From Lytechinus pictus (Eukaryota), in the NCBI RefSeq assembly GCF_037042905.1, contig NC_087251.1, forward strand, positions 47,432,001 through 47,496,000: a DNA stretch of 64,000 nucleotides, given 5' to 3'. The translations under genes and the position numbers were made by a program. Every line of letters starts with the position of its first letter. The stretch's first letter is position 1. Under the pieces are notes generated by a model that saw only the letters and a program-made list of their open reading frames with translations, did no database searches and was not told the DNA's origin. Below are positions 11,263 to 63,300 of the stretch, one piece after another.

Positions 11263-11343
11263 CTAGTTTATTGGCTTGTACAAAAGAGATGTCACATATT
11301 TCTTTCGATAGCGATGTGTCGCACTAAGCACCATTACTCCATC
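11263..11343 (-). CDS. PRKAB: AMPK beta terminal coding exon
   Basis: DGVMVLSATHRYRKKYVTSLLYKPIN*; TTTTGCAG| acceptor. Confidence 0.95.
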   Translation of the reverse strand, partial: DGVMVLSATHRYRKKYVTSLLYKPIN

Positions 11344-17300: not shown

Positions 17301-20300
17301 TGGACACCCCCTGCCCCCCTGTGGCACCGCCCCCTTTTCACACAGAAAAGTTAAGCATGAGTGTCTTTCTTTAAAGCCGTGCCTTGGCGATTCTTGGGAA
17401 GCAGTTTCCTGTCTCATGTCTAAATGGGACAAACAAAAACTTTTTGAGACTCTGGATGAACATCGCCAACTTACTTCTTCGGACTCGGGTGAGGTTCGCA
17501 TCTTCCAGAAGTGAAGAAGAGTGCATGAGAATCATAAAAAGCAAGATCCTTGTGAAGGAAAATGCACTCAAAATGCTAGCTGGAGGTGTGTGTGGATCAT
17601 TAAGATCATATTATATCCCTTTCTTTAAAAAAAAAATTCTACCCTACCTTTTTAAGTGGTATAAACTATCCAGAGTGCACAATTATTAGTAATCACTTAC
17701 CCATGCTCACTAAATTGTGTCTACAGGGATACACCTCTACACCCATTATAAAACTTGTTCATTATAATTACAAGAGACAAAAGGAAATGGAGATTCATCA
17801 TTATTTACAAAACAAAATAATACAATTCAATTGATTACAGGAGTGACGTATGCAAAATCATAAGAAAATTTTCATATTCAGCCTAATGAAAAAAAATAAA
17901 ATTGCTTCCATGAACAATCGAGCCTGGGGGTATATACAGAACCTGAAGCTGAAGAAGTCTGAAGGCACAGACCTTTGTTAGTCAAGATTGAGCATTGTCG
18001 GAGGTTTTTTTAAAACCTTAACCTTGTCTCAAAATTTATCAAGTTTGAAGACAGCTTAAGAGCTCTGCTATGAAGTTATGACAAAAGTAGCAGCTTTATT
18101 TTGCATAGAAAAAGCTCTTACAAGAATTTCAAGACTGTTTTCAAACAAAATGAGTTTGCAACCCTGCTAGTTTTTATATATTATATATAGTTTATATATA
18201 GTTTTTACGATCTTTCAAGAAATTGTTTTATTTTGAAAAACAATGTTTCGACAGCCCAACGATGATGCACAACTCAGGGTCGGATATGTTGCAAGATTTC
18301 AAGACTAAATTGTACTTGCTTCTGCCAACACTTGACAGCCCAGAGATTCCTTGATGATCAAGGACTTCCTAGATTTTTTTAAATAAAGAGTTGAATGAAG
18401 GATCTATACCAAGTCTGTGCCTAAAGACTATAAGCTTGAAGCGTGATAGCAACAATACTCTCAGCCCCAGAGATTCTATAATGTATGACCTTGACCAATT
18501 AGTTTCTGGCTTACCTGTCGTGGGTTGTGGATCCACTGACCGTCTACAAAGAACTTATATTCATGCTGACCCTCAGGAAGATTAACAATAGCTGTGAAGT
18601 CACCATGACTGAAATAAAGAGAAGACAGAGGATTTGCTTTGTTAAAGTTAGTCTGCAAGTACAGACTGTCAATCATATTTAATAATAATAATAATCCGCT
18701 TTTATATAGCGCTTAATACATCAGAGCGACGTCTATAAGCACTTTACAGATATTACCCCAATCATCGGATCCCGACATGCCCTCATACAACGTATGCACT
18801 TTCTCCACTCCCTGGGTAGCATTCTAACAAGAGTTCAAGACTCAATTGGAAGAGGAATACTACATATGCTTTCACACTCTACCAGGTACCCATTTAGCAC
18901 CTGGGTGGAGAGTGGCAAAGTCTGGATTGATGCCATGCCAAAGGCGTTAGGCCATAGTGGGATTCTAACACACGACCCTCTTATTACAAGGCGAGAGCCA
19001 GAACCACTACACCACGATGCTTCCACTTTGACACTTTAGACAATATATATACAATCTCTAGAATGGAGTGAACTCTCTGTCTGTGTAGAGTAGAGCCAGC
19101 CATAGTACATAGTGAATCTAGTCTCACTAATTCAGACTCTGCATAATGCACTATGCAAATTGCGAAAACAAGGGTCTGTGCCTGGAGACTAGGTTAAGGT
19201 TGCTCCAAATCCAAATAAATAGTACTACTTTGTATAAAACAGTTCCTTTTTTATTCAATTACAAAAATAGCTTTTTCCATTGAATTTCATAATTGTTATA
19301 AAGCTACTAAATAAGTCCATACATGTGTGCGCTTTTACAGAGAGAGGCAGTAAGGGAAAGAAAACTACTAACATTTTAAACAAACATTTACCTAGGTACA
19401 GATGAATAACATACATAAAAGTTATTTTTATTTAGTAATGATTAAGAAACAATATAAAAGTAAAGTACAGGTTGTGTGGTACAATGATTGATAAAAATCA
19501 CCCCAGAGTATTGGGTTCTTGGGGACGGGGGGGGGGGGGGGGGGGCAACGTTGGACAGTTCCTCATTCCTCTTTTAATCACAAACATGGACAGGCTTCAA
19601 GTTAATCACACATATAAAATATTGCACATTCTGGTAAACAGGAAGGATTCTCATATTTACCATTTGCATACCAAAAAAAATAGAATCACATCCCCCCCCA
19701 CACACAAAAGCTACTGATGCTCTTATTACAAATCTATGAAGCAGCAGTATCCAGTATACAAGTGGCATATCTCATTTATTAGAGAGAGTTTTTTTTAATA
19801 TGTTATAAAAATACTCTAGAATTGTCAATGTTGAATATTCTAGCATTTACACATTTCTGAGGCCCTTTATTTTGTATCATAGGACTTAAAATGATGTCCA
19901 CAGAGCATCTGCTACTAAATGCAGAACATATTCCATTCATTGACCCATTCTACCATTAAGATATATGTATCTAACAGTGCGGACTATTAAACTTTAATAC
20001 AGATTCAATGACGCTCATTAGTGCTAATACACCACTCCTCACACTAGGCATGCACACCGCACTGTTGCTGCAGATGAAACTTTGACCTTTTGTGAATGCA
20101 GGGTAGATAATCATAAATGAGAAAATGATCCACACCACAGATTACATTCAGTCTGAGCTGAATAGAGGGCCTTTGTTTGAACTAGACGTGTCAGCCTCAT
20201 CATCGGGTCGGTGTTTACATTTCAAATATGAACTGTTTGGATTAAGCTTTTGATTTCACCATACACAGGGAATGGTTGTAGACTGTACATGTGTAGATGT

Positions 20301-22753
20301 ACCAAGATGTACCTGCAGTTGTACAGTAGACTTACATAGAAACTGTCCTACGAGTCATTCATATTGCTTGATTCCTTCTCTATTCAATGATATCAAAATC
20401 AAGACCCCCAAAAAGGAATGTTTACTAAAGGTGATGAATGAGTAGTAATAAGCACTATCAACATAAATTCTTGAAGGAATATTATAAGTCCTAATTTCAT
20501 CCATATATGTGTATGTTATATTTCATTACTATGATTATGTCCCTTCTTTCTTGTTTCTTGCATATTATGCTGTGCACTGAGTGATAATTGATCAGAAAGA
20601 GCACAATGAAAATATTACTTATCGTTGATATTGTTGCTGTTTTTAACACAACTGTTGTGGTTTTTATTATCAATACCATTAAATCTAGTAGAGAAACCTT
20701 CACAATAATTAATAATGACTGAAAAAAAAAAACATTTATTTTTGATAAGCGAAACTTGTAAAAGCCCACCTCTTGATCATAGGAATCTTGGTGTTCCAGT
20801 TATTAAATGATCCAGCTACAGCAACGGACTTGCCTCCTCCTTCCCAACGAAACACCACAGGCAGCGCATTGGGATCCACGTAAGGCTGCTCTAACAGGGT
20901 TGCTGTGCGAGGCCGGCCATCGGGACCATCATCGCGCATCAATTCCTAACAATAGAAACATGAGAGATTTATAAACAAAATGTACAGAAACAAAACAAAA
21001 CAAAATCAAGGGATTCGAATCTCCAGACCACGCAGACTTTTCTCTTAATCTTGAGTAATACTATGACGCATGTTTGTTTTAAATACACTGATATTCAATA
21101 TGCTTGCTTGCATGAAAATTTAGTGGGAAAATTACACATTTTGTCAAAATCTGCATAAGTAACAAAATCAACATTCATGTATTTGATTGATTTCCCTTTT
21201 TTTTTAAATATGTTTTTTGGGGGGCATTTTCCTGCTTCCATGGAAATATACTATTAATGTCCATTAACATCAAGCAAAATCTAAACATGCTAGCTTTAAA
21301 AAAAAAGTCTCACATGTTCATTGTGATGACTCAGTGATTACATATAGCTTTTATTATTCACATTCAATTTTTCAAACAAAAAAAGTGTCCATGTGATTGT
21401 ATGTTGAGAGCATTCATGGATGTAAACAGGAACAAAAATCTCACACATTCTCAAGAGTAAGAAAAACCCTGATCCTTACCTTGAATTGAACCAAGGGCAT
21501 GACATAAAACTGAGATGCCAAAGGTTGTTTATGAGCATACATAAATTTTGAGCTTATAATATTTTCATTTCTCTATGACTGACAACTTGGTTGACTGCCA
21601 GGGTTTTATAATTTTGTAAAAACCTGCCTTTGTCGAGTTGAAAAGCAAACTACATGTACATGTATTTCAAATCCACTACAAATAATATGAAACTTTGCAT
21701 TACAAGAAAAAAAATACCCCCCCCCCCCCCCGCAGCAACGAATAACAAAACTAAGCGAATCCACTAAATTCAACATAAGTGAAGGTATAAAGACAATTTT
21801 AAAGGGGAATGGCAATGACCACAACTCAAATTCAAATGTTATTTATTTACTATGTCTAGGTGGGTTGACAAGGGAGCAATAAGAACCTACCCTTCCCCCC
21901 TCAAGTTCACCATAGCGGGAGGGGGGGGGGGATGGGGTACAGCACATTCTAATCAATCTATTGACTGTTCTTGGTGTTGAGATTGATGTGCACTTACTTA
22001 AATGCAGCTGGTACCATACTTACTTCTGGACACACTACACAAGCTTCCTGACAACTGTTTGTGAATCAATCACATATAATACGCAGGAATGTATTTCTGT
22101 GCTTTGCACCACAAACGGAGGACCCCTAAAGGGGAACGGATCAATAGGCTGCGTTGGGTTACATGAGACTCACGCTCGCCCTGAATCTACCTAGAGGCAG
22201 ATCTATACTGTCATCTGGTGAGTTGAATAATGGGGATCTTGCCCAGACCTCCCTACCTTTCTGCTTGAAAAATATGATTTTTTTCTCAAAAAAGGAAAGA
22301 AAATTATCAATAAGAAATAGGAAAATCCTGGTTAAACATGAGGTTGAGCGGTACAGGAGTGGTTAAAGGAAGCTCACCCTGAATCTACCTGGAGGCAGAT
22401 CGATACTGTCATCTAGAGATCTCTACTGGATGCAAAGACCTTCCAACCTTTCTTATTAAATATAAGGATTTTGCTTAAAAATGGGAAAGAAATTTAATTC
22501 CCCAGTGGAACACACAGTTAAACTATCGACACAAATTGGGAAATCGTATCTAAACAAGAACTTGAGTGGTACAAGAGTGGTTATAGAGGAGACTCACCCT
22601 GAATCTACCTGGAGGCATATCGATACTGTCATCCAGAGATTGCTGCTGGATGATGGGTATCTTGCCTGTCTTGAAATCAAAAGATGTGGACTCCTTGGTA
22701 GGAGACAGAGACGAGCCATCCTTACCGTCCTTCTTCGCTGCTGCGTTGCCCAT
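11263..22753 (-). CDS. PRKAB: 5'-AMP-activated protein kinase beta subunit, complete CDS, 7 coding exons, 273 aa
   Basis: Exons 22753-22598, 20945-20770, 18608-18515, 16026-15921, 14542-14403, 12807-12739 and 11343-11263 join in frame with GT-AG introns (phases 0,2,0,1,0,0). The protein has an N-terminal MGN myristoylation-type start, a CBM48 (FRWEGGGKSVAVAGSFNNW...YKFFVDGQW...FGTVNN), SGSPPG, PPILPPQLLQVILNKD, EPALLPEPNHVMLNHLYALSIKDGVMVLSATHRYRKKYVTSLLYKP. Confidence 0.96.
12739..12807 (-). CDS. PRKAB: AMPK beta coding exon 6
   Basis: YEPALLPEPNHVMLNHLYALSIK; TTTTCAG| acceptor, AAA|GTAAGT donor. Confidence 0.95.
14403..14542 (-). CDS. PRKAB: AMPK beta coding exon 5
   Basis: VDMSGSPPGDYNQEIPSQELQQRTTGPPILPPQLLQVILNKDIGPQ; TTACAG| acceptor, CAG|GTAAG donor. 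Confidence 0.95.
14674..15224. mobile_element. Palindromic MITE family with TTAA-type ends; further copies at ~24590-25940 (interrupted) and 33468-34073
   Basis: Shared CCACCCCA...GCATAAC.CTGAAAATTTCATCAAAATCGGAT arms and their inverse. Confidence 0.75.
15921..16026 (-). CDS. PRKAB: AMPK beta coding exon 4
   Basis: PLQSNTFGTVNNFINVSKSDFEVFEALAIDSSREK(G); phase 0 to phase 1. Confidence 0.93.
18515..18608 (-). CDS. PRKAB: AMPK beta coding exon 3 (second half of CBM48, 94 nt)
   Basis: HGDFTAIVNLPEGQHEYKFFVDGQWIHNPRQ; TTTCAG| acceptor, CAG|GTAAG donor. Confidence 0.95.
18678..19026 (-). mobile_element. tRNA-derived SINE
   Basis: Head TGGTGTAGTGG...GTTAGAATCC; core CTCTCCACCCAGGTGCTAAATGGGTACC; tail AAGCGCTATATAAAAGCGG(ATT)n. 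Confidence 0.8.
20770..20945 (-). CDS. PRKAB: AMPK beta coding exon 2 (first half of CBM48)
   Basis: ELMRDDGPDGRPRTATLLEQPYVDPNALPVVFRWEGGGKSVAVAGSFNNWNTKIPMIK(S); TTAG| acceptor, AG|GTGGGC donor. Confidence 0.95.
22174..22260 (-). other. Candidate 87-nt in-frame cassette exon derived from a partial duplicate of AMPK beta coding exon 1
   Basis: TTTTTCAAGCAG| KGREVWARSPLFNSPDDSIDLPLGRFRAS |GTGAGT; phase 0-0 with no stop. Confidence 0.45.
22378..22451 (-). other. Second partial duplicate of AMPK beta coding exon 1 (45-nt in-frame or 74-nt frameshifting pseudo-exon)
   Basis: Encodes RSLDDSIDLPPGRFR followed by |GTGAGC; possible acceptors at CAGTAG| (22422) or TAAG| (22451). Confidence 0.4.
22598..22753 (-). 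CDS. PRKAB: AMPK beta coding exon 1 (MGNAAAKKDG...SLDDSIDMPPGRFR); the exon starts at acceptor 22774 with 21 nt of 5'UTR
   Basis: ATG at 22753; donor AGG|GTGAGT; upstream acceptor TTTTTTGCTTTGACGCAG|. Confidence 0.9.
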
Positions 22754-24766
22754 CTTCTTGAAGATTTATTCAGCCTGCGTCAAAGCAAAAAATACAGAAT
22801 GAGCATTTCATCAACAGTTATAACCTGGCAAATTGTCGATTCTGACAACTTTCCTTGATATTGATTGGCTGAGATGCAAAGTTCCTCAGGTCAGATTAAT
22901 ACTGTTGGATAGATCATCCAAAAAGTCATACTCCCCAAATCTCTCACTTACATGAAGGGAACTTGACTACACTTGGAGGTTTTGATTAGATTGATATTTT
23001 TTTTCATGTTTTTAACAGTCATTATCTTTTTCATTTTGATTTTATAAATGTTTTTAAAATGTTCATTATCTTTTTCATTTTGTAGCATCTGATGCTAAGA
23101 TTTAATCAATTAAATTTACATAATCAAAGAAGAAAAATTGAATGAGTGATATAAAACTTCCATCTTCACATAATCAATTTTTCTGTTTTATGTCCAGATG
23201 CAATCGTTGATTGATATTAAAGATTCAAGCAGGACTTTCATTTCCAAACTTTTAAATAATTAGAGCATCTTAATAAACATGTACATGTATCAATATTGGG
23301 CTCAGGTCGCCATAAAATAAACAACTTGAACTTTGACAAATAGAGTACATGTTTATATAGTAAACTTAATTGTTTTACAAATAATTGGTATGGGATGGTC
23401 CGTCATTCCAATTAGAGTTCCTTTCAAATTATCAAAGAAAGATGAATCATAATCACACCAAGTACTTTCAAATGAGCTAATTTCAGCTAATATGAAAATA
23501 TTTGATCTGAATGAACTAATATCAACTAACAATTTAGAATTTACAAAAGCAAACGAAGAAAATAGGCCTGCATGTACAATAATGCAGACCAATTTTTGAG
23601 ATGTCAATATCATAAAATAATTTTATACAAATGTAATCACATGTCCATAGGAGGATCATAAATCATTGACCGACAATGCACCAACTGAAACACTGTACCT
23701 GCAGATGGATTTTGCATGGACACCAGATTGTATGTAAAACACTTTGCAATGCACTTGCAGGAAAAAAAATTGAAATGGTGAAGAGATAGTGGCATCATTA
23801 TGTATATGCCTAGCTACTCTGGAGAGCACTTAGGAGAAGGCTCTAAAGGGGGAGCAGTAGGTATCTCTGAGAAAAGGTGCTTTCAGACCGATTAAAAAAA
23901 GGAGAATACCAGGTTGTACAGGTCAGGTCTACATAAATACCAGGTATTAAATAATTTTTGCAAGTGTGATCATGATCAGCATATTTGTGATATTCTTAGA
24001 CAAAAATACCCGCTAATCAGTGGGTACTTTTTTAAATGACAAGAACTTTTGCATTGATTTTTCCACGGTTGCAGGTATTCTTGCAGTGTGAAAGCAATTT
24101 ACAAGAACTTTCCCAATGCTGGCATTGCAGGTCTGGTTCTGGTGGGTACGAATGCAGGAAATACTGGGTATTTTGGGACCTGAACAAGTTCTTGTAAATT
24201 TTGATCAAGTTGGTCTGAGTTCACCCTAAGACATCCCAAAACAGCAGCTGCTGTGAGCTGACATAATCCCCTGACTGAACCGATAAACCTCAAATATCTA
24301 GTTGAATACACAAACCATACATCCCAAGGAAAAATATAAGAGTTGAAAGATTATAGATCTGCGAATGTTTTTTTTTTTAAAGTCTTTCTTGATTGTAAAA
24401 TTGTAGAAAAGATGAGGAACATTGGCAATTACTTAATATATACATGTATAGGACCCCTTGTTTTTTTTAGGGCCATTATGCATGTATTTTTCTGCTTGTA
24501 CTGTTTATACAAATAGCACGGCCTAAATTAATACAAGGCCATGGCCACCCATGCCCTCAAAATCTGTCTTGATGGCCTTATGTACACTCATTTCATATTT
24601 CATATAATAAAATACAAAAGAAATAGTGAGTGTATGACGTCATCAGTCTCCTCATTTGCATACCAACCAGGATGTGCATACAACTGTTTTGTTTTGTGCC
24701 AAAGTTTAAAATGTCATAACTATATTATTTTACATCCAATTTTGAAGAAATTTTCAGTGTTATGCT

Positions 24767-45881: not shown

Positions 45882-48335
45882 TGATATGTGGATGGAATTA
45901 GGTAGATGGGCGGAGGGGGAGGTGGGGGGGGGGGGGTTAATAGAGGGGAATACATAATACAAATACATTGTACATTACACGGTATCAAACAATAAAAAGA
46001 AAATCAGATATTTGCACATGGTGATCACGAGTTGTCCGAATTTGGCTAAGAAAAATAATAGAGGCAAGAATCTATGAATCAAAATAGACAAAACTAAACT
46101 GTATCTGATGTCTGCTGAGCTGACGATATTAAAAAATCAACAACCCTAAACAGTATTTTATGATGATTTCTGAGATGCAATCAAATTGATTGTACGGATA
46201 TAGCATATTACATTAAACACGAAATATAAACAGTATTTTATGATGATTTCTGAGTTGCTATCAAATCAATTGTACGTATAATGGCATTTCCATGTAGGCT
46301 TTGGCTGTTTGGCAAGGCACTATACATAGCACACATTGTTGATGATTTGGTTTGTAATGTAAATTAACATGGATGATACAAAAACACAATACAAAAAAAA
46401 CCAGCACGTTCTGATTCTTGGCTTCTGGCTGCCGTGTAGATCAAGGCACGTGGAACTAAAAAATGGCGACCCTGGGTTTGTTGTTTATTGCTAATACCAT
46501 TTGGTGATCAAAATAATTCATAACCACATTTCCTGTCTGAATAGGTGATTAAATAATAATCAGACTATTTTTCAACTTATATCTCTTTTTCTTTTATGAT
46601 TTTCTGCTGCAATAGATTTAAAACCTCCCACAATGATGGTCATAAACATTAGATCATTTAAAGAAAGACATTTGAATGTCCACTAATTCCCTGCACATTT
46701 AATGTAAAAACCGCAGAGTACAATCAGACTTTGTTTTGAAATATCACTTGATTATTAAAACAAGTCTTTTGTTAAATCCTTTTGTTAAATCGTGAATTTT
46801 GTTTCCATAAGCATATTTTTTGTACCAATTCTGCCATCAGAAATAATATGTAAAATACACTTTGCACTTTGATGACAATTTTTTACATCCTTAAAGAACT
46901 AATGCTGAATGTGAGTTGATATTCATTTCATTACAAAGTTACAATGCATTAACAAATACAAAATACATCACACAGGCACTTGGATGTATGCAGATTCTTA
47001 CTGTTTGAAATAATTGCAGTGCTTTTGCAAATGTCGTCAAAATACTGAATTACAAATTGTTTTCAATGAACTACACCTACTCTAAATACAATACCAGCTA
47101 ATACCATCTACCATAAACGCTACTAAAAATAATCATTTAAATAGAAAAAAAAAATGCATGTATACATAATAAATGATTACACCAAACAGTACAATTAAAA
47201 CAATTTATAAATATAACACTTTAAATGTGTATATGCAAATTAAGGTGAACAGAGATACATTGAGGGTTAAACCTTCAAACCATAAATACATCATTTTTGT
47301 TCCATTTGTTCCTGGCTAAAATCATTTCTCATACATAAACAATAAAATCATAATAATACCCAGCTTGCTAATGTGAAATACCAGCATTTCGACTAAATTA
47401 CCCAGAAGGCAGTCTTCAAAAATCATAGACTCGGTAACAATCGACATCATCAAAACATAACCCCTACCTACCTCCATGAAGTATGAAGCTCTCCAACTCA
47501 AATTTACATTGTTTTTGAAGAGTTCTTTATAAATAATTCTCCAGCTCAAAATTTTGAAGCTATAGATCACATTGGAATATCCAATGCTTCGATATTACAC
47601 AAGCTAAGCATATACAATCTCACTGGCCAGTTAAAGCAAAGATTCTTATCTTATGCACATGCAGTACAAGGCTCACATAACATTACCATTCTGATATCTT
47701 ACAACATTTGTAATCATTATGCACATCATTTTTTGGACATAGTTGATCATCAAAGCTTCTTTCTTTCTTCAAGCCATGACAGGATTTTAGCTTTTCATAA
47801 CTTCATGCTATCACTATTATCCAGACTGGGATAAAAGCAAGATATCTATAGAAGTAATAGCAACAGGTCATGACCCTTACATAATATTACATTATATTTG
47901 TTGCAAAATAACTGTACATTTGGGAATCATTTCAAATATTCAATTGATTAATCAATATTACTTGGATTTACAATGGATATATAAAAAGAGATATAAAGAA
48001 TACATGATTTTCTTCTTTTTTTCATGCTGTATCTGTAGCAGTGGCTTCGAGGAGGCATGTTTTTGAAACCTCTGATCTACAAAATGAACACATATCATTT
48101 CATGAATGTTTTATTTAACTGCACAGCCATAAATACAAGGGAATGACTGGAAATAGCATCCAACTTTTTTTTTCTCTCTCCATTCCAAATGAATGGCGAA
48201 TCGGTTCCCACATTCTTTAAACATAAAATTCTAGCGTTAGTTACAGTACAGGACCAAGCGGCTGTAGGATTCCATGCAGCTGATCAGCAAAGAAATTTAC
48301 AGACGTTATAAACTCTACGACCGATGGTGTTGCAT
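44760..48335 (-). other. Probable ~3.6-kb 3'UTR of the CBM48 gene
   Basis: I recognised no MITE in this stretch after the stop codon; minus-strand AATAAA at 44780-44785 (and another near 48110). Confidence 0.45.
45829..45879 (+). repeat. (GA)n microsatellite
   Basis: Direct reading. Confidence 0.95.
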
Positions 48336-48386
48336 TCATGCCACAGTTACGGTGTTGTTCAGACCGAGCTCGCCTTCTACGGTGGC
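48336..48386 (-). CDS. CBM48-protein terminal coding exon
   Basis: ATTTTCTCTTTCAG| ATVEGELGLNNTVTVA*; matches the final CBM48 strand (AMPK beta FGTVNNFINV). Confidence 0.87.
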   Translation of the reverse strand, partial: ATVEGELGLNNTVTVA

Positions 48387-51300: not shown

Positions 51301-54300
51301 AGACGATTACACCTATGCTTCAACTCTAAGATATAGCTTTTTTTGAGCTGTCTTCCCTTTTCTTAAGTTTTGAGAAAAAGGGTTTTAACAGCTCAAGAAC
51401 TGGATTTGGTCACAAGGAACAATACTTGACCAACACACCACAGCAATAAACAACTCTTGCCAGAATGAACAGGTAAGGAACAGCACATCAAAATGTGAAC
51501 AGCGCCCCCTTCTGGCAGGCATCTGCCATGCTTCTCACCTGCTTGGAGTCTACCTTGTCTTCACCATCGACTACAAACTTGTAGCTGTAGTCTCCTGCAA
51601 GGAGGTCCATTTTAACACTGAAGCAGCCATCACTGTAAGTGTGTATGTAGTGGAATGAATGGGGTTATAAGATATTCATAAAAAAAACTTGAGGCAAGGC
51701 TGGGGGAGGGGATGAGAGAATGTAATAATGCTGCCTGCATAGTGCATACCAAGGTCGAGGAGGATACTTTGCTGATTATATCATTTGCATAGATTTACTG
51801 GATTAATCAAAAGAGATGATCCTTGCAAATTCTGATTTAAATTTTACCAAAGGAAACAAATAGCTTTTATTTAAAATTCAAAGTCCTCCTTCCTGTCCCC
51901 TCCTATGCAGGAAACATCATCCGTTCTTCTCATCACAAAGTTTGATACCATCATTCCATGCTCATTCCTGAATTGATATTCTTCAAGAGGAATTTCATTA
52001 CCATTATTATGCCCCACTCGCACGCACCAGCAAAACTAACTCCAGACCGACTTATAATATGCCATTGAAAATAATGCAAAAGCTTTGGCCGGTCTGGAGT
52101 CGGCCTCGTTGGTGTGATTGTCCCATTTCAAGCATCACCAAATACGGATCAAGGCCGGTGGTCCCTTTATCAATGTCTACGGGGATTCCGAGGATAATCA
52201 TCCAACGAAACACAGATGAGCATGAAGCGATGTACCAAACTCCCCTCCAGGCAAGCCTTCATTAAATACACAAACATACAAACTGTTGCATCTTGTTACC
52301 TGTTTCATACTCGTCTTCCACTCGCCGTCTACGATAAACTTGTATGTCCATTCCCCGGGGCCAAGGGACAGCGTTTGTGCAAACGTGCCTTCCTCACTAC
52401 CTCATTAAAATAGGGTATGGAGTAGGGGTGGTAGTAGTGGTGGTGGAAGTAGTGGTAGGGAGAATAGCAGGAGGGTATGAAGAAGTTAGTAGTGGTAGTA
52501 GTAGTAGTAGTAGTAAAAGGGTATGAAATAGTAGTAGGAGTTATCATACAGGTTAATAGTGAGGCAGAGGGGATATGTATTAGTTATATAAAAAGTTTAA
52601 TCAGTTCACATTTTTCATTTCCAATTTAGTATGAATGCAACACGTGGATTGGAAGTGCGCATATTATTTTGGTTGGTAGATGAGGTATGTGTGAGAGAGG
52701 ATTGATATATTTCAAAGGAAAAATCATTCAAAAAATGAATGAATTCAAAACCATGCATGACGTGACCAACAATGAATGACATTGTATACAAAGAAATTGC
52801 AAGGGGGAGGGTGTCGTTTGTTTGTTTGGTGTTTGCACAGACATGAATTCATTTGATTGAAAGAGATTTTGCCATTTTATCATTTGCAATAAAGGTTTGT
52901 AAAAAAGTGCAAATATTTGTATTCAATAAAATTGAGCAAAAAATTAAATCCAATCAAACCACAGCATGCAGTATTTTCAAATATGAAAAAAAAATAATAA
53001 GATTGTGAATTATAATGGATAGAATGGGGAAATAATTTTTTCTAATGAAAATTGAAATGAAAAAAAAAATAAATTAAAGGTTTGATCAAAAATGAAAATT
53101 GAAAGAAGCAATTAGAGGTTAGACAGAAAATGAATGTGAGGAAAGACAAAATACAAAACAAATAACAAATGAGACACAAATACATCTTATTCCAAATAAA
53201 CAAGTTTAAGGAGGTAAATGAAAAAGGCATGCAGCATGCAGTACACCTCCATGTATTTCAAGCCATTCTGACTTCACAATCTGTGACTCCAATATTGAAC
53301 ATGTCACATATAGGTATTCAGTCAGTAAGCTGGCCCTGATAAAAAGTAGCTTCTTTCATCAGATTGATATTCATGATTAGAGTGGTCTTGCATATTTAAT
53401 GAGCTTAATGCTGACCAAAACACCTCTTTTAATTTGTTCATTGCTGCTCTAAATATTTATGGAATTCATTATTTTGGTATCATTGAAAAGAAGAAGAAAC
53501 ATTCTTTCGGGTCATATGTTTGAATTTATTTAGAAATTTTGCAATGTTGTTGAAAATTTTGATCTAAAACATGCTAATTTTTTTTTTTTTTCACCTTACA
53601 AAAGGTCATATTCATATTTGTTTGAGCCAAAATTATTTTTAGATCATAATAAAGCTGAATATGTTAATGGTATAGGTTTCAAGAGAAGAATTGGTTTAAT
53701 TGGGTTGAGATCACACTTTTCATAGGCCAAGTAAATTTATCAGCTTGAAAATAAGAACACTGTGCACTCTGATTGGTCAAAGAGACTACACACCCAGCCA
53801 AATTCAAACTGTTTCCATACTGGGGCCCTTCCAAGGTCACACTCCCCATGTGGAAATCTCTTCAAATTAACCTCGCCAGTTGTTCTGAAACCTTATCCAG
53901 CCAATCAGAACTCTGGATTTCATGCATGCAACTCAGAAATTTTAGAAATCTTGTCTTTTACCTTGGTGAGAAAAGTGTAATCTTGACCCGATCAAAAGGT
54001 GACACATATAAGAGTGGCAGTGTAAGAAAGTACATATTTTCAGCTTTGTGATGATTTAAATATGTTTGAGGCTCAAAATAGTAAATTTTGCACAATTTGC
54101 AAAAGAAAACAGAAGAAACTCAATTTTTGAGGCATCTCTTCAGGTCTGACATTTACTCTATCAAATGGTGCAATAATATTTAATTTGACCATAGGATAAA
54201 GTGGTTAAGTTCTTAGAGAAAGAAATCTCATGATTCATGAGATTTTGCATGGAGGATTCAGCCACAAGATGATTTGGATGAATCTGGCCAATTTGCTCAT

Positions 54301-57300
54301 TACCAAAGGGACCTATGGCCTGACTGTATTTGCTATGAACATCAAGTGATATTTGTTTTAAATCTCATGAATAAATGTAGATATCAACTTCAATTAAAAA
54401 AAAAAGAAGATTAATTACAAGCCTTTAATTTGTAGTAAAAGGTTAGTTCAGTGCTATGGCATCACCAATACTGATTACGCTTTTTTTTAACTACAAGAAG
54501 AGGCTGGCTGATTATTCAGAAATTTGGACAATAGAATTTTCTACATTTGACTGTTCATATCAAATGCAATGATAATTTGGTTAAAAAGTGACAGTTTGTA
54601 GAGTGTGCAGAGGGACTACTATTCAACGCAATTTCAAATCTGCAACAATTATTTCATATTTGTCCAAATTCTTGCAGATGAAGTTGTGCAATGGGTGTAG
54701 CCAACCTTTGCATTTTGGCAAATATAGGGGTTGTTCATAGGAAAAGAGCAACTTGGGGAATTGTCCTAGATCCCATTGCATAAAAGTTACTATTACAGTA
54801 AATTGGTCATCCAGTAGTAACTACTATGGTAACAATGCTCATCAGCCAATCAAATTCAAGAATAAGCCCGTTCACGGTTAGCTCATGATCAACTTTTCTC
54901 AAATGACCTTTGTGATTTTTCATTAGGATAAGCACTATCATTTTCAAATGTAGATGTTGTGTAAGCTTTACCAGTAGAGTATTCAAATTATAAGAACAAA
55001 AGGCATTGTATAGACCAGGTGACTAGAATAGTACATCAGGGATAAACTTTGGAAATCTGTTTTATTGTCTGCCTTTGGCACATTTGACTATTGTTTAGGC
55101 TACTGTCAAATACCAGTGATTATGAAGGCTCTATTTATTACTCTTCAGCTTGGATGTGATAAAATGAATATTTTGAAAGGAATACATGAATAATCATAAA
55201 ATCACAAATGCCTATGCCAGTGAATTTGAACGCCACCTTCATGGTTTATCTCAAATGACCTTTTTCTGCTCGTGCACAGTTTACAACCGTGAACAGGCTT
55301 ATTCCATGGAAGATACCAATGGAAGACAAAGTTACAATAATCATATTTTTTATGCAACAGGGTACAGGTTGGGGTAAAAAAAAATAATAATAATATTAAT
55401 TGTCAGGGAAAACGGGTTATTTTTCAAATGGGCAATGTCCATGGTCATGGTCTAAGGGGCATACTTTCTAAGAACTAGTTATGAAGATTAATGTCAGTCT
55501 CAATATGTAATGAGGGGAATGAAGCAACTATTTCTAATCAAGAGGTATCAGCATGCATCGAAGGAAATGTGACCAATAATTTTGAGAAATCATCTATTCT
55601 TATTTAAAGATACACGTCATATTAATCATACTGATATCCTTGACAGTAACTATCTTACACAACAGCTACTGATAAATGTTCTCATGTTTGGAATTGATAT
55701 ATTAGTCAGTAATATGCTTTTCACACTGCATTTCCTTAACCCCGGTCTATCCGTAACCCCAAACTATCCTTTTTTCTTTGTTTCGCACTGTCTTTCTTAA
55801 CCCCATACTATTTGCTTAGCCGGGGTTAGCACCTTAACTCCCGACTATCGCACAGCTCATGAATATTGATGATTTTACCATACAGAGTGTGATTAATGTG
55901 CAATTTCGACTTCTGTGATTGGCTAATGCTTCGCCTCACTTTTCCTTAGTCCATTTTTGTTTCACACTGCATCTCTTCGCACCGCAATTGTGGTGCTAGC
56001 ACCAAAAATAAGCCGGCTAACCCTGCTTTTTTGCAAGGCCAGATAGTACCATACTATTTACCGTGCTAGCCCACTTTGCTAAAACGTAGTGTGAAAACGA
56101 AGTGGGCTAAGCTCAACCCCGGAAAATTGGTGGGGCTAAGACCCCTCCACACACCAATTTCCCTGGGTTAAGGAAAAAGTGCAGTGTGAAAAACATATTA
56201 GGTACTTGTCAAAAGTCAGAGCCCCTTCTTTGCATGGGAATCCCGCAAGCGGCCTTTCATTACGAAATCTCAAACTTCATCTTACACAAACAATATGGAA
56301 TGCAGGAAAGCCACTATGAAAAGATGCATAGTGCCTTTATTGCGGAATTCCTGCTAAAAGTCGAGGCAGAGACTTATGAAAGGGTACCTCAATTATTGGG
56401 AACAATGATGCATCTACTCTTCCTAAAATCCCTAGCATGGGAATCCTGGCTCTAGGTCTTGATAGATATATTGCTCTTTACACAAGAACCCTGATAAGAA
56501 CGAGTTAATGGTGAAAAATACTCACACTTGCGTTAGTTGCACTCTTTCTTTCCAGTCATTGAAGCTACCGGTGACAAAGACATCCTGTCCACCCTCCTCC
56601 CAGCGGAATTCAACAGACGTCTTCTTCTCCTCTGTGGGTTGGTCTCCCGATGGTCCATCTAGATGGTCAAAAAGAGGAGTAGTGAAATTATTAGGAACCA
56701 GTTAAGAGTGCTTCATGAAACACCTCGTCAGTGATACTTACCAAAAATTTGCTCTGAGCCAATCGGATGCAAAGGTTTCAGTAGCGTATGATTGTTTCAT
56801 GAAATGCTCCCCTGTGAGATTTAGGCTCCCCCCAAAAAAAAAATCCCTAAAAACTGCCATAATTATTAGTGTATCATTAAGTTTGCCTGAAAAACCAATA
56901 TCTCATAAATCTCCAGACACTACGACTGAATAGCTTACAAATCTCAGGTGATTCCTGTCTGACCTAAAGGTTTGCTATTATGATTATATATATCATTAGC
57001 TGCAAGAGATCCTGAATGTAGTTTAAGACCAGGAAACGTGTTGATCTACTGATCCCAAAATCTTTGACTTGGCCTTTGGTTGATGTCCCTGTCTTACTTG
57101 TAATTGCTGATTCTGATACAGGACTGTCATCGGCCTCTTTGGCTTCTACCGCTGCGGTCTCCTTGGATGGTTCCTCTGGAGCTGGTGTCTCAGCTGGCTG
57201 ATCGGCCTCAGGGGCGGCATCTCCGTTCACCTCTGGTGCGGTGTTCTCGGAGGTCGCTGCTGGCTCGGGTTCTGCAGCAGTCTCGGGTTTGGCTGGCTCG

Positions 57301-60300
57301 GGTTCTGCAGCAGGCTGTTATGAATAGAATAATAGATATATTCAACATAAGAAAAATGGTGAGAGATTCATTTGCTATCCACAGCAAAGGAAATGATCAA
57401 TATCTGGGAATACCATAGGAATTCATTCTCAGGCAGAGAAGTCTTGGCAATTATAGATTACATGTCAAACATTATGAAAGAGAGCTCAATATCGGAAACA
57501 AACCTCAACCGGTGTTTCTGTCAGTGTTTCTGCTGGTGTTTCAGCTGGTGCTTCTGCCGGTGTTTGAGCAGGTGTTTCTGCCGGTGTTTCAACTGGTGTT
57601 TCTGCTGCTGTTTCTGCTGGTGTTTCTGCTGGTGTTTCAGCTGGTGCTTCAGCTGGTGTGTCAGCTGGTGTGTCTGCAGGTGTTTCTGATGGTGCTTCTA
57701 CGGGTGTTTCTACTGGTGCTTCTGCTGGTGTTTCAGCTGGTGTTTCTGCCGGAGTTTGAGCAGGTGTTTCTGCCGGTGTTTCTGCCGGTGTTTCTGCTGG
57801 TATTTCTGCTGGTGTTTCGGCTGGCGTTTCTGCAGGTGTTTCAGCTGGTACTTCTACCGGTGTCTGTAGTAAAATATCACATTAATTATATGAATAATTC
57901 AATAATAACCTTAATCTTTTCAATATTACATGTTGAAACAATGGTTATCACTGCCACTACTACTTCTACTAACACTACTAAGACTCCTACTAATGGCAAT
58001 AAAACATCGAGCATAACAATCCGACATTATTCAATACTTTCTAAGTCAGTCCCTCTCTTCAACATGCTATTGTACTTGATTAGCTACTTTCTACTGTATT
58101 TTCATTTCCTGACATCAGATCGTTGCAAGGAAATCATTTTGCACCACACTAAATCTACATGTATTTCTCCTCTCATTTACCACAGAAGAGTCAATTATTA
58201 CTATTTCATACCAATCATGTCATTCACTGATATGATGCCATAAAATTCATGAGTCTTTAATAGCTTCTGTGTAGCTCAAACACATCACATTACAAATTCA
58301 TATCTTATTTTTCAATCACAGTACATATAGACAAAAGGACTGTAACAAATCATGAATTGAATTCAAGTCAACATAGAAATTGACTCTATTCCATATAAGT
58401 ATCAGTTTCATAAATACCAAGTTTAATGAATATATGCTAAATAACACAAGCATGATAGAAGATTGCATCAAAAAGGTTTCAGTTTACAGTAGTTTGTAAT
58501 CTAAAACTAGGTCAGTCCTGTTATGAAACTTGTTAATACAATACACTGTGGCTAGACTATTGAATACACTTTTATATTTCCTTTCACTCTTTTTAATCTA
58601 TCATCTTCACTTTCCACATTCCTCTATTTCAAAAGTTTATGTTAATTTCACATTTGGTGGAGAGACTTAAAGCAGATATAATACAAGCTAAGTATGCCAA
58701 TGAAAACGCAAGGGGTGTAAATAATACAAAGGAACAAAAGGTCCAGTCAGGTCCAGTCACCATTTATAAATAACTTGTGTCACTTTGGGTATAGTTTCAA
58801 AGTCTTGGAGACCTGTTACAAATGAACGGCTGTTCAAACCCAAGATGATTAGTTCTCCTTTATGACCCATATATTATTGAACCTTGACTAAACTAGGCTA
58901 TTTGGCACAGAACGCAGGAAAGGGGGGTTTACTAATATCCCTTTTGTCTATGCCAAGCTTAAAGAGGGTCAATACCAGATTAGTAGATTTTTTCATCTCA
59001 AATATTGCCACTCTTTGTAAAAGTAGCAATATATGTTTATATTTGTAAATGATTTCAATGGTTTCTACCTGCAATCTGCTTTGTGTCAGATAAATAAAGG
59101 CTAACTAGCTATGCTAGGTGCAAGTATTCCAGATAGAAGACTTAAGACAGGAAGGAAACGCACATTAGGGAAGATGGTCTTTATTCCTCGTCCAATATAC
59201 ACTTTACATTTAGGTATGGGTGTGCAAATAGTGCTCAACGATGCTTTGAGGGAAGGAGTATAAATGGATTATACTGAAACATTGCAAGGTCTAAAAGGAT
59301 TGCAACATAATTCTATCGAAATAGAAACATAAACCTCAATTACCTCCTACCCTCATCCATTCCCCCCCCCCCCCAACAAAAAAAAAATTCAGAAATCTAC
59401 CGTAACAGTACTGCTTAGATGGCTATCCCCCCGAACCCCCACACCCCAAGGGATTGGAGACCAAGAACCCCGGGAGCTGGTTGACCCCTATGTTACAGTA
59501 ATACTGAAGCAAACACTTCTTGGGCAACATACTGCTCACCACTGAAAGACACTGCACTGGGAAAATTACCCTCATAACTATCAATTGATGCATGCCCTTT
59601 AAGCTGATTATCTTCCTAGTAGCTTAAGATTATTCTTGGAAAATAACAATGTTTTATAGCTGTGTGGGAGGAAACTGGGAATTTGTCCAAGAGATATCTG
59701 TTCACAATTTACATTTTCAGAGGATAGTGCATCTTCCCTACCTCTGAAGGCGTCTCTACTGGTGCCTGAGCAGGTGTTTCCACTGGAGCTGAAGGTGTTT
59801 CTACTGGTGCTTCTGATGGTGTTACGACAGGTGCTTCTGATGGAGCTTCCATCGGTGCTTCCGATGGTGTCTCAACCGGTGTCTCTGAAGGAGTTGTAAC
59901 TTCTGTTGGTTCTGAAGGCTCTTCTGCTTTTGGTTCCTAATATTGGAAAAGAAGAACAAATAGTTGGGATTCAAATGAAGCAGCTTTAGCTATGTTTAAA
60001 ATATAGTTTATATTATAAATATCAGTTGAGGTGTGCAATTTGAATACTAAACAAAAATGCCAGAGAGAATTCTGTCCAAAGTGCAGTGCATTGAAAATTT
60101 TGTGTGACAAAAGAAAAAGACCATGCCCAATAATACATCTAAAGGAGTGAGTTAACTTTGACTTGATAAAAAGGAGAAAAACATGTGGATAACTTTGCAT
60201 CATCAGTATACCTCCACTGAATCTGTTTGTGCAGGTGCAGGTGTGGGTTCTGGAGTGGGTTCTTGGGAAGGTTCTACTACTGGTGTTACTGGTTCTGGTG

Positions 60301-63300
60301 TTGTTTCTGGTGCAGGCTCTGGAGTGGCTTCTGATGCTGCTGGTTCAGGTTCTGGTTGGGACGGTTCCTCGGGTGCACTTTCAACTGGTGCAGGGGGTGC
60401 AGGTGAGGGCTCTGCAGGAGCAGCAGCTACAACAGGTGCAGCAGGTGTTGGTTCAGGTTCTGACGGTACCTGCTCTGGTTGGGATGGTTCTGAAGGCGCT
60501 TGTTCTTTGACGGGTTCAGGTTCTGCTGATACAGGAGCAGGCTCATCTGGTTGAGTTGATGGTACTGATGATGGTTCCGATGGTTCGGTTGGTACAGCTT
60601 CAGCAGCTGCTGGTTCCGTTGATACTGGTTCTGGTGATGCTGCTGATTCTGCTTTAGGCTCCTCTGATGCAGGTTCTGATGATTTTTCTTCAACCTTTAA
60701 AAAAATACAGGTAACAAAAAAAAATGTTAATAAGAAAATGACCCCAAAATCATTCAATCTTGTATTAAATACACGCAGCTGCTGCCTCAGCTCCCCAACG
60801 GCAGTAGCTACACATTATCTATTGTAGTGGACGCGCGTACAGACAGTATTCACTGCAGTGTCAGTGCAAAGTAAAGGCGGTATTTTCATGGAAATGAAAT
60901 TGATCGATTGGCAAAAACTGTTGGATAATTTACATGTGTACCTGCTAAAATGGTTGAGGTATACATCGAGCATACCTCGAAAGAAAGAGAATGACTCGAT
61001 GAAACAAAGTTTTACAATTAGATCATCGCGGCGGGTATTGCAGCTTCGCAATGTCAGCCATTGTTATACTGACTGTAGGTTCAAACATGATAGATAGCGC
61101 TGTCCATATTGAGGCCTAGTGTTAGCTAGCGAGACATGAGCTGTTTTTCTTGGGAAACTAAAAGAGAATGTGATGAAATGTTTGCGCTGCGCCCTGATTT
61201 ACTGAAAATTATCCTGCCTAAGTTCTTTCTGTGATTTGGGTGGGATATTTTCATGAAAAATAATGTTGTTGTATGTAGACTATATTGGAAAATATATGTA
61301 ATCAAAGTGAGTTTGCGTATAGGATTGAGTTTAGATTAAAATCTCATTTCCTCACGTACTAGATTGAATTGAAAAAAAAAATCTAGGCAAGAGTGCGTCC
61401 AGATAATAGAGAGATCCGGATAAGGGGAGGCAGGATAAGAGAGGTCGGACTGTATATTTTGCTATCCTCAACCCAGGTGAGTTGATTGATGCCAGGCAGG
61501 ATCAATTCCTTGAATAATGTGTGCCGATAAGAACGCAGTGTTTTGTATCAAGGACCACTATACATGTAAATGTTACTGATTATTATTACCATTACCATTT
61601 TCACTGGTACCTTTTCTTCATTCTCATTCTTGTTAAAATTATATCAATTAAAATTATAATTAAAAGAAGAGGAATGCCTCTGGCGGTCTCACCTGCATCA
61701 CACGATTCAATACAGCAGCAGTGCTGACTTTGAAAACTACTATAAAATAATTATTCACAAAAACACCATTCATATGATACAATACTACGTTCATTGACAT
61801 TTGACCTTGATCATGTGACCTAAAAATTGTCAGTGATACTTGATTACCCCTATATCCACATTTTATACACTGTATCTATAAACTTTGAAAGTTATGACAG
61901 CAATCTAATAATTACCTCTAAAATGGCCAAAGTTCAATGACCTTAAATGACCTTTGACTTTGGTCATGTGACCTGAAACTCAAGCAGGATGTTCAGTAAT
62001 ACTTGATTAACTTTATGTCTAAGTTTCATGAATCAGATCCATAAACTTTCAAAGTTATGATGGTAATTCAACAGATACCCCCAATTTGGCCAAAGTTCAT
62101 TTACCCTAAATGACCTTTGACCTTGGTCATGTGACGTGAAACTCAAGCAGGATGTTCAGTAATACTTGATTAACTTTATGTCTAAGTTTCATGAACTAGG
62201 TCCATATATTTTTCTAAGTTATGATGACATTTCAAAAACTTAACCTTAGGTTAAGATTTTGATGTACATGGTCTAAGTTCATTGACCCTAAATGACCTTT
62301 GACCTTGGTCATGTGACCTGAAACTCAGGCAGGATGTTCAGTAATACTTGATTAACCTTATGGCCAAGTTTCATGAACTAGATCCATATACTTTCTAAGT
62401 TATGCTGTCATTTAAAAAACTTAACCTTCGGTTAAGATTTGGTGTTGACGCCGCCGCCACCACCGCCGTCGGGAAGCGACGCCTATAGTCTCACTCTGCT
62501 ATGCAGGTGAGACAAAAAACCTATCACATATCATGTCAGTGCACGAATGCCCTTGGCTAAATATTGCGCACCCCATCGGTGCAGAAATGCCCTAGACAAT
62601 GCCCTTTAATATGCGTGCATGCGATGCACAAAAGTGTGGTGTTATGGGTGCCTTCCATTGGCACAACAATATTTCTTAGCTGTAAATATCAAAGCTACTA
62701 AAAGCTTGTCAATATCTGCCTGACATTCTATTGGGTTCAGTTTGACACAGTAATCGATTCGCTAATTGCAAATCATTAGATAGTAGTTAAAAGTCCAGAA
62801 TATCATAACATTTCTTCACCTCTCAATTTCATAAATGAAGCATGGAGGAGTCAGTAGTGCAGATATTTCTCACTGTATACATTATGTTTTCTCATGCATT
62901 ATATATTTCCCTCACGTCACAAATTTCATACTTCTGCTGGAAGTTTCCATGGTGACTTAAAAAAAAAATTATTTGATTGTGTTATAACCAAACTGGTAGC
63001 TACTGTAAGAAGATCAATACCTTTCTTATGTTGACTACTAACGGTTTGAATTTCAAGTAAAATGGCTTTGGTGTGTTTTTTTTACCACAAGAATGCTCTT
63101 TTAAGCTGCCAAGTCCTTCGAAGGGCTGTCATATTACAAAGATTTCTTTTATTCTGCTTACAATGAAAGTCCTTCAGTAAATAATGATGCAATGTGAATT
63201 GATTTCAATTCTGAAGTTTCAAATATTTTTTGCTTCATAGAATAGTACCTGTTATCTGAGATTTACCATCATAAATATCACCGAAGTTCTAATCAGAAAA

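Follow-up and report, generated by a model that had tools for sequence, protein, structure and literature searches.

The closest described counterpart of the domain considered here is the carbohydrate-binding module of the AMPK beta subunit (CBM48; PF16561; rat beta1 structures 1Z0M/1Z0N and 4YEF), which belongs to the same family. Mutants in a single tryptophan are the standard laboratory means of detaching AMPK from glycogen. For rat beta1 it was reported that substitutions W100G and K126Q abolish binding by the module, while W133L disrupts it only partially; with W133A the effect of glycogen on AMPK was lost, and the residue beside W133 (T134 vs V) was discussed as a determinant of how far beta1 and beta2 favour branched sugars (PMC6274970). 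A natural module of the AMPK beta type devoid of this tryptophan is present in yeast Sip2, which has Leu in the same column (2QLV, chain B) and for which glycogen binding in vitro was nevertheless reported (PMC4033248). There it is paralogous genes that vary and not splice forms, and Sip2 is a full beta subunit.

Stand-alone PF16561 modules also exist outside the kinase complex, as in yeast Atg45 (Yil024c), Crp1 and Mdg1, the first of which is described as a glycogen receptor for autophagy (PMC11145338). STBD1, the mammalian CBM20 glycogen receptor (PMC11145338, PMC7393401), and PTST1, a plant adaptor with a C-terminal CBM48 (PMC6322578), are likewise non-catalytic, with a C-terminal glucan-binding module as the sole folded part; proteins of this type are reported to position glycogen or starch, or their partners, in the cell (PMC11145338, PMC7393401, PMC6322578). 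STBD1 differs from the protein described below by its CBM family, and PTST1 by kingdom and domain partners (coiled coil). For the three yeast proteins alternative exons are reported in none, and the likeness is drawn at the domain level only; to our knowledge, neither STBD1 nor PTST1 toggles a binding residue by splicing.

Mutually exclusive exons retuning a binding site are classically represented by FGFR2 IIIb/IIIc and PKM exons 9/10. The pair considered here, exons A and B, is of this known kind, but lies inside CBM48. As in FGFR2 and PKM, tandem duplicated exons that share the phase and nearly share the length, exactly one of which is used, change ligand-contact residues; the differences are that the module concerned binds carbohydrate and that the exons have a length of 3n+1. 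Our search of the literature found no report of a CBM48 with mutually exclusive exons, nor of CBM-only paralogues of AMPK beta in animals.

Exons of the gene and its relation to AMPK beta

The following features were delineated on the minus strand of the window (the whole stretch of DNA analysed, 64 kb), the last two serving as comparators.

60212..60694, minus strand: exon E-4, 483 nt, phase 0-0, Pro/Glu/Ala/Ser-rich; inferred from ORF and splice sites
59742..59936, minus strand: exon E-3, 195 nt, phase 0-0, Pro/Glu/Thr/Ser-rich; inferred from ORF and splice sites
57504..57863, minus strand: exon E-2, 360 nt, phase 0-0; boundaries inferred from sequence and splice sites
57098..57314, minus strand: exon E-1, 217 nt, Pro/Glu/Ala-rich, phase 0 to 1; from its joint to U and contig pieces
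56526..56658, minus strand: exon U, 133 nt, constitutive first half of CBM48 (...EFRWEEGGQDVFVTGSFNDWKERVQLTQ) with the W100 equivalent; PF16561 36.6 bits
52396..52300, minus strand: exon A, 97 nt, EEGTFAQTLSLGPGEWTYKFIVDGEWKTSMKQ; variant middle CBM48 exon with K126 and W133 equivalents
51632..51539, minus strand: exon B, 94 nt, DGCFSVKMDLLAGDYSYKFVVDGEDKVDSKQ; variant middle CBM48 exon with the K126 equivalent and Asp at W133
48336..48386, minus strand: coding part of terminal exon T, ATVEGELGLNNTVTVA, then TGA stop at 48338..48336
47700..48335, minus strand: 3' UTR with AATAAA at 48115..48110; from the depth table
20770..20945, minus strand: first CBM exon of canonical AMPK beta (...VVFRWEGGGKSVAVAGSFNNWNTKIPMIK); 20945 is the ORF end, not a mapped acceptor
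18515..18608, minus strand: CBM exon of canonical AMPK beta, 94 nt, Trp kept (...KFFVDGQWIHNPRQ); 42.4 bits

A long acidic region rich in Pro, Glu, Ala and Thr precedes the C-terminal CBM, and within it E-2 is a tandem repeat (TRF) in which a 12-nt unit, coding for (P-A-E-T)n, recurs ~30 times. The gene runs upstream past the window edge: an additional Pro/Glu/Ala-rich exon-like ORF is present in L006 (~9250-9430), and a first coding exon of the MG type was found neither in the window nor in 20 kb upstream. At the other end exon T supplies the equivalents of L146, G147 and N150, finishes the CBM and ends the protein with a TGA stop 16 codons into the exon. Depth in the 3' UTR is 12.9/14 over 48026-48351 and then 2.0/3.9 over 47700-48025; the X1 contig, which covers the region of exon T from below 47700 up to 48389, indicates a longer 3' UTR form extending past 47700.

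The preliminary description had taken the AMPK beta subunit itself as the frame of reference, and this premise had to be replaced. The gene is not AMPK beta but its tandem paralogue without the AMPKBI domain, and it encodes a CBM-only protein that stops right after the module. The canonical AMPK beta gene lies ~25–30 kb downstream of it and contains both genome-wide matches of AMPKBI (PF04739) above the cut-off (window positions 11272-11349 and 12736-12810). PF16561 exon matches across the 812-Mb genome number five, all within this window. Taken alone, exons U, A and B each score above the PF16561 gathering cut-off of 26.8 bits (A with 31.4 bits at model positions 33-62, B with 27.2 bits at 34-62), and the intron positions and phases of A and B are identical to those of the canonical CBM exons. 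In the canonical exon 20770..20945 the last two bases belong to the codon equivalent to S108; the S108 equivalent of the CBM-only protein is Val. Unlike AMPK beta, this protein ends after the CBM, has a long acidic low-complexity region and possesses the middle CBM exon in two alternative versions, one of them without W133. Devoid of AMPKBI/ASC, it cannot scaffold alpha and gamma as AMPK beta does.

Exons A and B are adjacent homologous exons of the same phases and near-equal length, each flanked by AG before and GT after, and lie between the same U and T, with a spacing of 667 nt in a single contig. When the 64-kb window is searched in six frames with exon A as the query, exon B is found with E 1.4e-6 and 14 of 31 amino acids identical, a homology far above chance. 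At the nucleotide level 46 of 93 positions coincide, the differences falling 12/12/23 on the three codon positions (pS 0.91, pN 0.41), so that synonymous sites are saturated. A and B are old duplicates.

Both exons start with T|GA, and the first base of each is the third base of a codon opened in exon U. The frames of U+A+T and U+B+T are open through to ...NNTVTVA*. If both exons are included, an immediate stop occurs at the TGA with which B opens, 94 nt ahead of the last exon junction, while joining of U directly to T leads to a stop three codons on. Thus, owing to the 3n+1 lengths, the frame itself enforces exclusivity of A and B. In this respect the preliminary description, which had given coordinates, strand, translations and frames of the two exons and had argued that exactly one of them is needed, was correct throughout.

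Joining of A and B in RNA

In RNA both A and B are joined to U and then to T, and their mRNA levels are comparable. In two stranded RNA-seq runs, X20 and X21, the U>A joint (52396 to 56526) was registered by 15 reads (8 starts) and 10 reads (7 starts), and the U>B joint (51632 to 56526) by 9 reads (7 starts) and 19 reads (17 starts), respectively. Contigs of two further runs, X1 and X5, which are only presumed to be RNA, contain the same two joints, so that these occur in all four runs examined. The joints are of the GT..AG type on the minus strand, and exon reads have a single orientation. For the joint of E-1 to U (56658 to 57098) 17 reads were counted in X20 and 33 in X21. Since the summed reads of U>A and U>B (24 and 29) match these values, little room is left for skipping of both exons.

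Continuation into T was seen in assembled contigs, namely those of X1 and X5 for the A>T joint and that of X5 for the B>T joint (to 48386), and it rests on these contigs, with raw-read rows absent among the 15 of 122 joints listed. In X1 the joints U>A and A>T have a common depth of 107.7, and in X5 the joints U>B and B>T have a common depth of 299.9; as the depth is shared within each pair, each most probably represents one contig, U-A-T in X1 and U-B-T in X5. All four junctions that had been proposed at the outset are thereby accounted for, 56526>52396 and 56526>51632 in both stranded runs, 52300>48386 and 51539>48386 in contigs. Neither an A>B nor a U>T joint is among the 15 of 122 joints listed, which leaves space for their low-level occurrence. 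The pair is real, expressed and mutually exclusive.

The balance between the two forms may vary from run to run, but the difference in read counts falls short of demonstrating regulated switching. Contig depth for B and A was 85.4 vs 107.7 in X1 and 299.9 vs 69.9 in X5, and the A:B ratio of reads was 15:9 in X20 vs 10:19 in X21 (Fisher p = 0.056, sample types unspecified). Docking/selector RNA pairing was not supported by a crude test with ungapped helices in 400-nt intron flanks (6 flank pairs, 15 shuffles): the longest flank helices had 12–15 bp against shuffle means of 12.3–13.9 and shuffle maxima of 13–18. Four of six pairs stayed below the shuffle maximum, downB/upT reached it (15 vs 15) and downU/upB surpassed it by 1 bp (14 vs 13).

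One could suppose that A and B do not share a transcription unit and that the assembly has collapsed or misjoined two gene copies, or two haplotypes, from which they originate. Two haplotype groups do exist in the data, X20, X21 and X5 sharing 7 of the 8 3'-UTR variant positions listed and X1 corresponding to the reference. However, both exons are joined to U at 56526 in all four runs, that is in both haplotype groups, they are separated by only 667 nt of one contig between common neighbours, and the genome search found no further copies of PF16561 exons, which makes this origin hardly credible.

Sugar-contact residues and relatives of the two isoforms

After splicing the modules of the two isoforms correspond to the family equally well (99.0 bits for isoA and 99.7 bits for isoB with a profile built from 10 other CBMs). 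The second Trp of exon A falls on W133 of the rat/human AMPK beta1 CBM chains, and exon B has Asp there. Isoform A thus possesses equivalents of W100, K126, W133, L146, G147 and N150, and isoform B those of W100, K126 and N150 with Asp at W133. Alignments to AMPK beta1 therefore agree with the earlier assertion that A keeps W133 and K126, while B keeps the Lys and has Asp for W133. The replacement of W133 is not alone, since 17 of the 31 positions distinguish A from B, including the loop LSLGPGEW vs MDLLAGDY. The top PDB match of exon B is Sip2. Among 256 other domain rows from 98 proteins the W133 column contains W in 169, a gap in 38, Y in 13, F in 7 and other residues in 29; Asp occurs there only in P0001, which is a relative's copy of exon B.

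P0001, a genomic ORF of a close relative, keeps 22 of 24 exon B residues, Asp included, and was the one of seven candidates that passed in the homologue search with the exon-B ORF. Proteins built alike, with an MG... start, an acidic region and a C-terminal CBM ending in NNV[IL][TV]VA, are P0021, P0029/P0071 and P0034, the latter from the sea slug Plakobranchus ocellatus. The N-termini of P0021 and P0029 are MGGKSSKQKK and MGNKSGKQK, and P0021, P0029 and P0034 all have Trp in the W133 column. The disordered part of P0021, inspected by eye, contains no aromatic residue and hence no Atg8-interacting motif. A homologue search with exon U for longer proteins gave one candidate and none that scored; that with the CBM region of P0021 gave 27 matches, mostly multi-CBM48 proteins, P0021 itself being the only orthologue-like one; a metagenome scan with the U/P0006 alignment gave eight loci, consisting of microbial-type intronless CBM48s and the chance match L013, with no orthologous locus. 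In these protein homologue and metagenome searches a B-type exon was found in very close relatives only and in no distant species. As a separate lead, not evidence, the ESM Atlas (scores no higher than 0.83–0.86) contains a cluster of AMPK1_CBM proteins of ~349 aa, mostly without AMPKBI, in which the phylum is recorded for one member, Mollusca.

The Trp of the three orthologue-like proteins from other organisms, as well as the lack of a B-type exon in any distant species searched, would be expected if exon B were a tolerated neutral or decaying duplicate and its inclusion were splicing noise. This is nevertheless improbable, because inclusion of B is as frequent as that of A (9 vs 15 and 19 vs 10 reads, with contig depths likewise), and because, although synonymous sites between A and B are saturated, the frame of B has stayed open, neither of its splice sites is lost, its fold residues (F, L, G, YKF and VDG) persist, and its spliced form gives 99.7 bits with the independent profile. 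The ORF P0001, with its Asp and 22 of 24 residues kept, testifies to the same. The earlier suggestion that both exons are maintained gains support from the preserved fold residues under synonymous saturation and from the equal profile scores.

Proposed explanation and its consequences

The explanation that we prefer has, taken as a whole, a probability of roughly 0.6. The minus-strand gene would be a tandem partial copy of the adjacent AMPK beta gene, and its product would consist of an acidic Pro/Glu/Ala/Thr-rich disordered stretch followed by a C-terminal CBM48 of the AMPK beta type, with nothing beyond. The middle CBM exon was presumably duplicated long ago, giving rise to A and B. Judging by the frames, productive mRNAs should be those with a single inclusion, and mRNA containing both A and B would be a target of nonsense-mediated decay. 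Isoform B may bind glycogen or alpha-glucan more weakly or with another preference, and the choice made in splicing would then set the fraction of the protein engaged with glycogen. It is plausible that splicing lowers or retunes glucan binding in this way; an on/off switch is not implied, since the loss caused by W133L is partial and Sip2 with Leu is reported to bind glycogen.

The same observations on W133L (PMC6274970) and Sip2 (PMC4033248), together with the discussed role of T134 vs V beside W133 in branched-sugar preference (PMC6274970) and with the 17 differences between A and B, which extend over the loop, are in line with another possibility, namely that both isoforms bind glycogen about equally and that the exons differ for the sake of another property, such as branched vs linear preference, stability or a protein partner that touches the same CBM face. 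We regard it as possible, if on the whole unlikely. Replacement of a stacking aromatic residue by the acidic Asp is more drastic than replacement by Leu, the sole Asp at this position among 256 other CBM48 rows is that of the relative's exon B, and W133A was reported to abolish the effect of glycogen on AMPK (PMC6274970).

Returning to weaker or altered binding by isoform B, it can be extended to a reading of the family that we put forward as a speculation and rather doubt. The proteins may be animal glycogen tethers of a kind not yet described, fixed on the membrane by a myristoylated polybasic N-terminus and carrying a C-terminal CBM48 of AMPK beta origin on a long polyanionic spacer, with the ancient A/B pair of the present lineage turning the grip on (Trp) or off (Asp). 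If so, splicing, not phosphorylation, would control the location of glycogen particles or the competition with AMPK for glycogen.

In the paralogue devoid of the kinase-scaffolding half, an equivalent of the laboratory Trp mutation is apparently made by splicing. If the two forms are equal in binding, the locus adds one more well-documented pair of mutually exclusive exons. If they differ in glucan binding, it would provide a natural experiment on a free CBM48 in animal cells and a handle on glycogen handling in invertebrates.

Duplicate middle exons and the reading frame

The preliminary description placed two homologous CBM48 exons, A and B, between an upstream exon U and a terminal exon T, and held that exactly one of them can be used. 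Both were found at the same positions, with frames as claimed and homology above chance.

Exons of the A/B gene (window positions)
U: 56658..56526, minus strand, ends in ...GSFNDWKERVQLTQ plus two bases of a codon
A: 52396..52300, minus strand, 97 nt, encodes EEGTFAQTLSLGPGEWTYKFIVDGEWKTSMKQ
B: 51632..51539, minus strand, 94 nt, encodes DGCFSVKMDLLAGDYSYKFVVDGEDKVDSKQ
T: starts at 48386, minus strand, encodes ATVEGELGLNNTVTVA and then TGA

A six-frame search of the entire window with A returned B with an E value of 1.4e-6 (14 of 31 residues identical), as well as a third relative at 18604..18515. Taken singly, A and B matched the same positions of the profile PF16561 (AMPK1_CBM) with 31.4 and 27.2 bits, respectively, the Pfam gathering score being 26.8 bits, and U covered the first third of this profile with 36.6 bits. 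The pair is therefore confirmed as described, both by its mutual similarity and by the score of each exon. AG precedes and GT follows each of the two. Upon joining of exons by script, U+A+T and U+B+T gave open frames, U+A+B+T ran into a TGA made by the first bases of B, and U+T stopped three codons on. Since both exons are 3n+1 in length and both start with T|GA, exclusivity of their usage, as judged from the joined sequences, is enforced by the reading frame. The stop in an mRNA with both exons would lie 94 nt ahead of the last junction, so that nonsense-mediated decay would be expected.

Expression and maintenance of both exons

Stranded RNA-seq raw reads of runs X20 and X21 (approximately 6 in 100 of each run) and contigs from the older runs X1 and X5, presumably derived from RNA, with X5 representing a second organism, were considered for the region 47700-57450. 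All joints found were of the GT..AG type on the minus strand. E-1 is the exon upstream of U.

Joints of exon U in four runs
U>A, 52396->56526: X20 15 reads (8 starts), X21 10 (7); contig depth 107.7 in X1, 69.9 in X5
U>B, 51632->56526: X20 9 reads (7 starts), X21 19 (17); contig depth 85.4 in X1, 299.9 in X5
E-1>U, 56658->57098: X20 17 reads, X21 33; contig depth 239.4 in X1, 370.3 in X5

Thus, the joints 56526>52396 and 56526>51632, proposed earlier for counting, were present in all four data sets, and those leading from A and B to T were found in contigs. There is one transcription unit, in which U is joined alternatively to A or B, and both mRNAs are present at similar levels. Since E-1>U counts (17 and 33) are close to U>A plus U>B (24 and 29), double skipping cannot be common. 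The depth of the A>T joint in X1 (107.7) equals that of U>A, and the depth of B>T in X5 (299.9) equals that of U>B (A>T in X5 is 101.9), which suggests that single contigs hold U-A-T and U-B-T. Among the 15 of 122 joints listed, A>T and B>T come from X1 and X5 contigs with no rows for raw reads, and neither A>B nor U>T appears; rare double inclusion or double skipping may occur. The difference in the A:B ratio between X20 and X21 is suggestive (p = 0.056).

A single read orientation was registered in the bins of exons A, B, the 3′ UTR and upper E-1; both orientations were present in the bins of exon U (56502-56827) and lower E-1 (56828-57153), where they are attributed to repeat-derived reads of adjoining introns. 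The intron stretches 48352-49655 and 53568-56175 showed deep two-strand coverage, with many reads merely 90–95% alike and "opposite strands" joints at 48617/48863 and 53721/53926. Such features suggest that repeats or fragments of transposons, with arms in inverted orientation, are transcribed here. In the 3′ UTR (48041-48255) X20 and X21, which bear the label of the reference's organism, agree with the X5 variants at 7 of 8 positions listed and, together with X5, a 4-base deletion at 48110, X1 being identical to the reference. This pattern implies that two divergent haplotype groups or close taxa were sampled, and both of them make both isoforms. Docking/selector pairing in introns was unsupported by a crude test: the longest helices had 12-15 bp versus shuffle maxima of 13-18, and one of six flank pairs went beyond its maximum, by 1 bp.

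The assumption that both exons are maintained was supported as well. A and B are identical at 46 of 93 aligned bases, with differences distributed as 12/12/23 over codon positions; pS estimated by Nei-Gojobori is saturated (0.91), which makes the duplication old, versus pN of 0.41. Despite this age B retains an intact frame, its two splice sites and the residues that define the fold (F, L, G, YKF and VDG), and the spliced products isoA and isoB scored alike (99.0 and 99.7 bits) with a profile of 10 other CBMs built without rows from the window. The only database match to the exon-B frame, P0001, which is an ORF of a relative's genomic contig running into the intron, kept 22 of 24 residues, Asp included. 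A search of more distant species gave no orthologous genomic locus. The A/B pair is real and expressed, and our confidence in its alternative splicing is about 0.95.

A CBM-only neighbour of AMPK beta

The third relative is part of a canonical AMPK beta gene (11272-22765), which looks complete and lies on the same strand, in tandem downstream of the A/B gene; its CBM intron splits the codon of the S108-equivalent Ser (AG|T).

Exons of the canonical AMPK beta gene
Near 22.7 kb, minus strand: first exon, MGNAAAKKDG...
Ending at 20770, and 18608..18515, minus strand: CBM exons
11272-11349 and 12736-12810, minus strand: AMPKBI (PF04739) exons

Its CBM introns have the codon positions and phases of U|A/B and A/B|T, and its middle CBM exon is 94 nt long, as is B. 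All five PF16561 exon matches found in the 812-Mb assembly fall in the window, and PF04739 gave nothing above cut-off in this assembly outside the canonical gene. That the A/B gene encodes an AMPK beta subunit was rejected: its frame ends after 16 codons of T, at the last CBM strand, and thus is devoid of the alpha/gamma-binding domain. Together with relatives of the same architecture this identifies it, at the level of sequence, as a CBM-only paralogue of AMPK beta. Such relatives were three of 69 phmmer matches to exon U among 1.84 billion representatives: P0021 (363 aa), P0029/P0071 (326/331 aa) and a fragment, P0034, from the sea slug Plakobranchus ocellatus, annotated there as an AMPK beta subunit. 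The full-length ones have K-rich starts MG(G/N)KS..., making a lipid anchor possible, a long acidic stretch of low complexity and, at the C-terminus, a CBM that ends in ...NNV(I/L)(T/V)VA.

Upstream of U the gene has four phase-0 exons whose translations abound in Pro, Glu, Ala, Thr and Ser, E-1 being the one with read support; the gene extends past the window.

Exons upstream of U
57314..57098, minus strand: E-1, backed by reads
57863..57504, minus strand: a 12-nt unit repeated about 30 times, predicted from open frame and splice consensus
59936..59742, minus strand: predicted likewise
60694..60212, minus strand: predicted likewise

The phase-0 exon 57504-57863 (360 nt, (Pro-Ala-Glu-Thr)n; TRF period 12, 29.6 copies) is likely a length-variable coding minisatellite. 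Another tandem repeat (163-nt unit, 3.2 copies, 82% matches) occupies 61874-62419. The first exon was not found in the window or 20 kb upstream. The adjoining 10-kb stretch L006 (C7:47496001-47506000) has at ~9250-9430 on the minus strand, 9 kb past the window, one more Pro/Glu/Ala-rich exon-like ORF, GGKAEEGQTTAGEESKPTESPAEPAAAAAASPAPQEAGGES..., resembling the region of P0021 just past its N-terminus; the 5′ end of the gene is still further upstream.

The W133 column and glucan binding

On the solved AMPK beta1 CBM (rat numbering) Lys of YKF in exon A corresponds to K126 and Trp of GEW to W133. In the domain alignment both isoforms have W at W100, K at K126 and N at N150, and the W133 column has W in A and D in B, in agreement with the residues initially assigned to the two exons. 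Among 256 other domain rows from 98 proteins, a sample gathered by our own searches and hence not unbiased, this column contains W in 169, a gap in 38, Y in 13, F in 7 and other residues in 29, mostly from multi-repeat proteins; Asp is found only in P0001. Protein P0002 (1812 aa) contains 18 or more CBM48-like repeats in tandem, nearly all without Trp in this column, which shows that CBM48 proteins with multiple repeats tolerate free variation there.

According to PMC6274970, the beta1 CBM loses its glycogen binding in the mutants W100G and K126Q and part of it in W133L, and W133A removes the inhibition of AMPK by glycogen. Of the two tryptophans, W133 is less critical. A strict on/off switch between A and B is disfavoured by yeast Sip2, the closest PDB match of exon B, which has Leu in the W133 column and, together with Gal83, is said in a review (PMC4033248) to bind glycogen in vitro, and also by the 16 other positions at which A and B differ. 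The predicted change in binding between isoforms, as read from these residues, has chances slightly better than even.

Mutually exclusive tandem exons retuning a binding site are a known phenomenon; searches of open-access papers and bioRxiv gave no report of a CBM48 with such exons, nor of CBM-only paralogues of AMPK beta in animals. As stand-alone glucan-module proteins, mammalian STBD1, plant PTST1 and yeast Atg45/Crp1/Mdg1, whose PF16561 domains are outside the Snf1 complex (PMC11145338), resemble the A/B protein, which by this analogy would be a putative glycogen adaptor or tether. Isoform A is predicted to be a competent glycogen binder, and isoform B to bind more weakly or with another preference; the A:B ratio would then set the share of the protein residing on glycogen.
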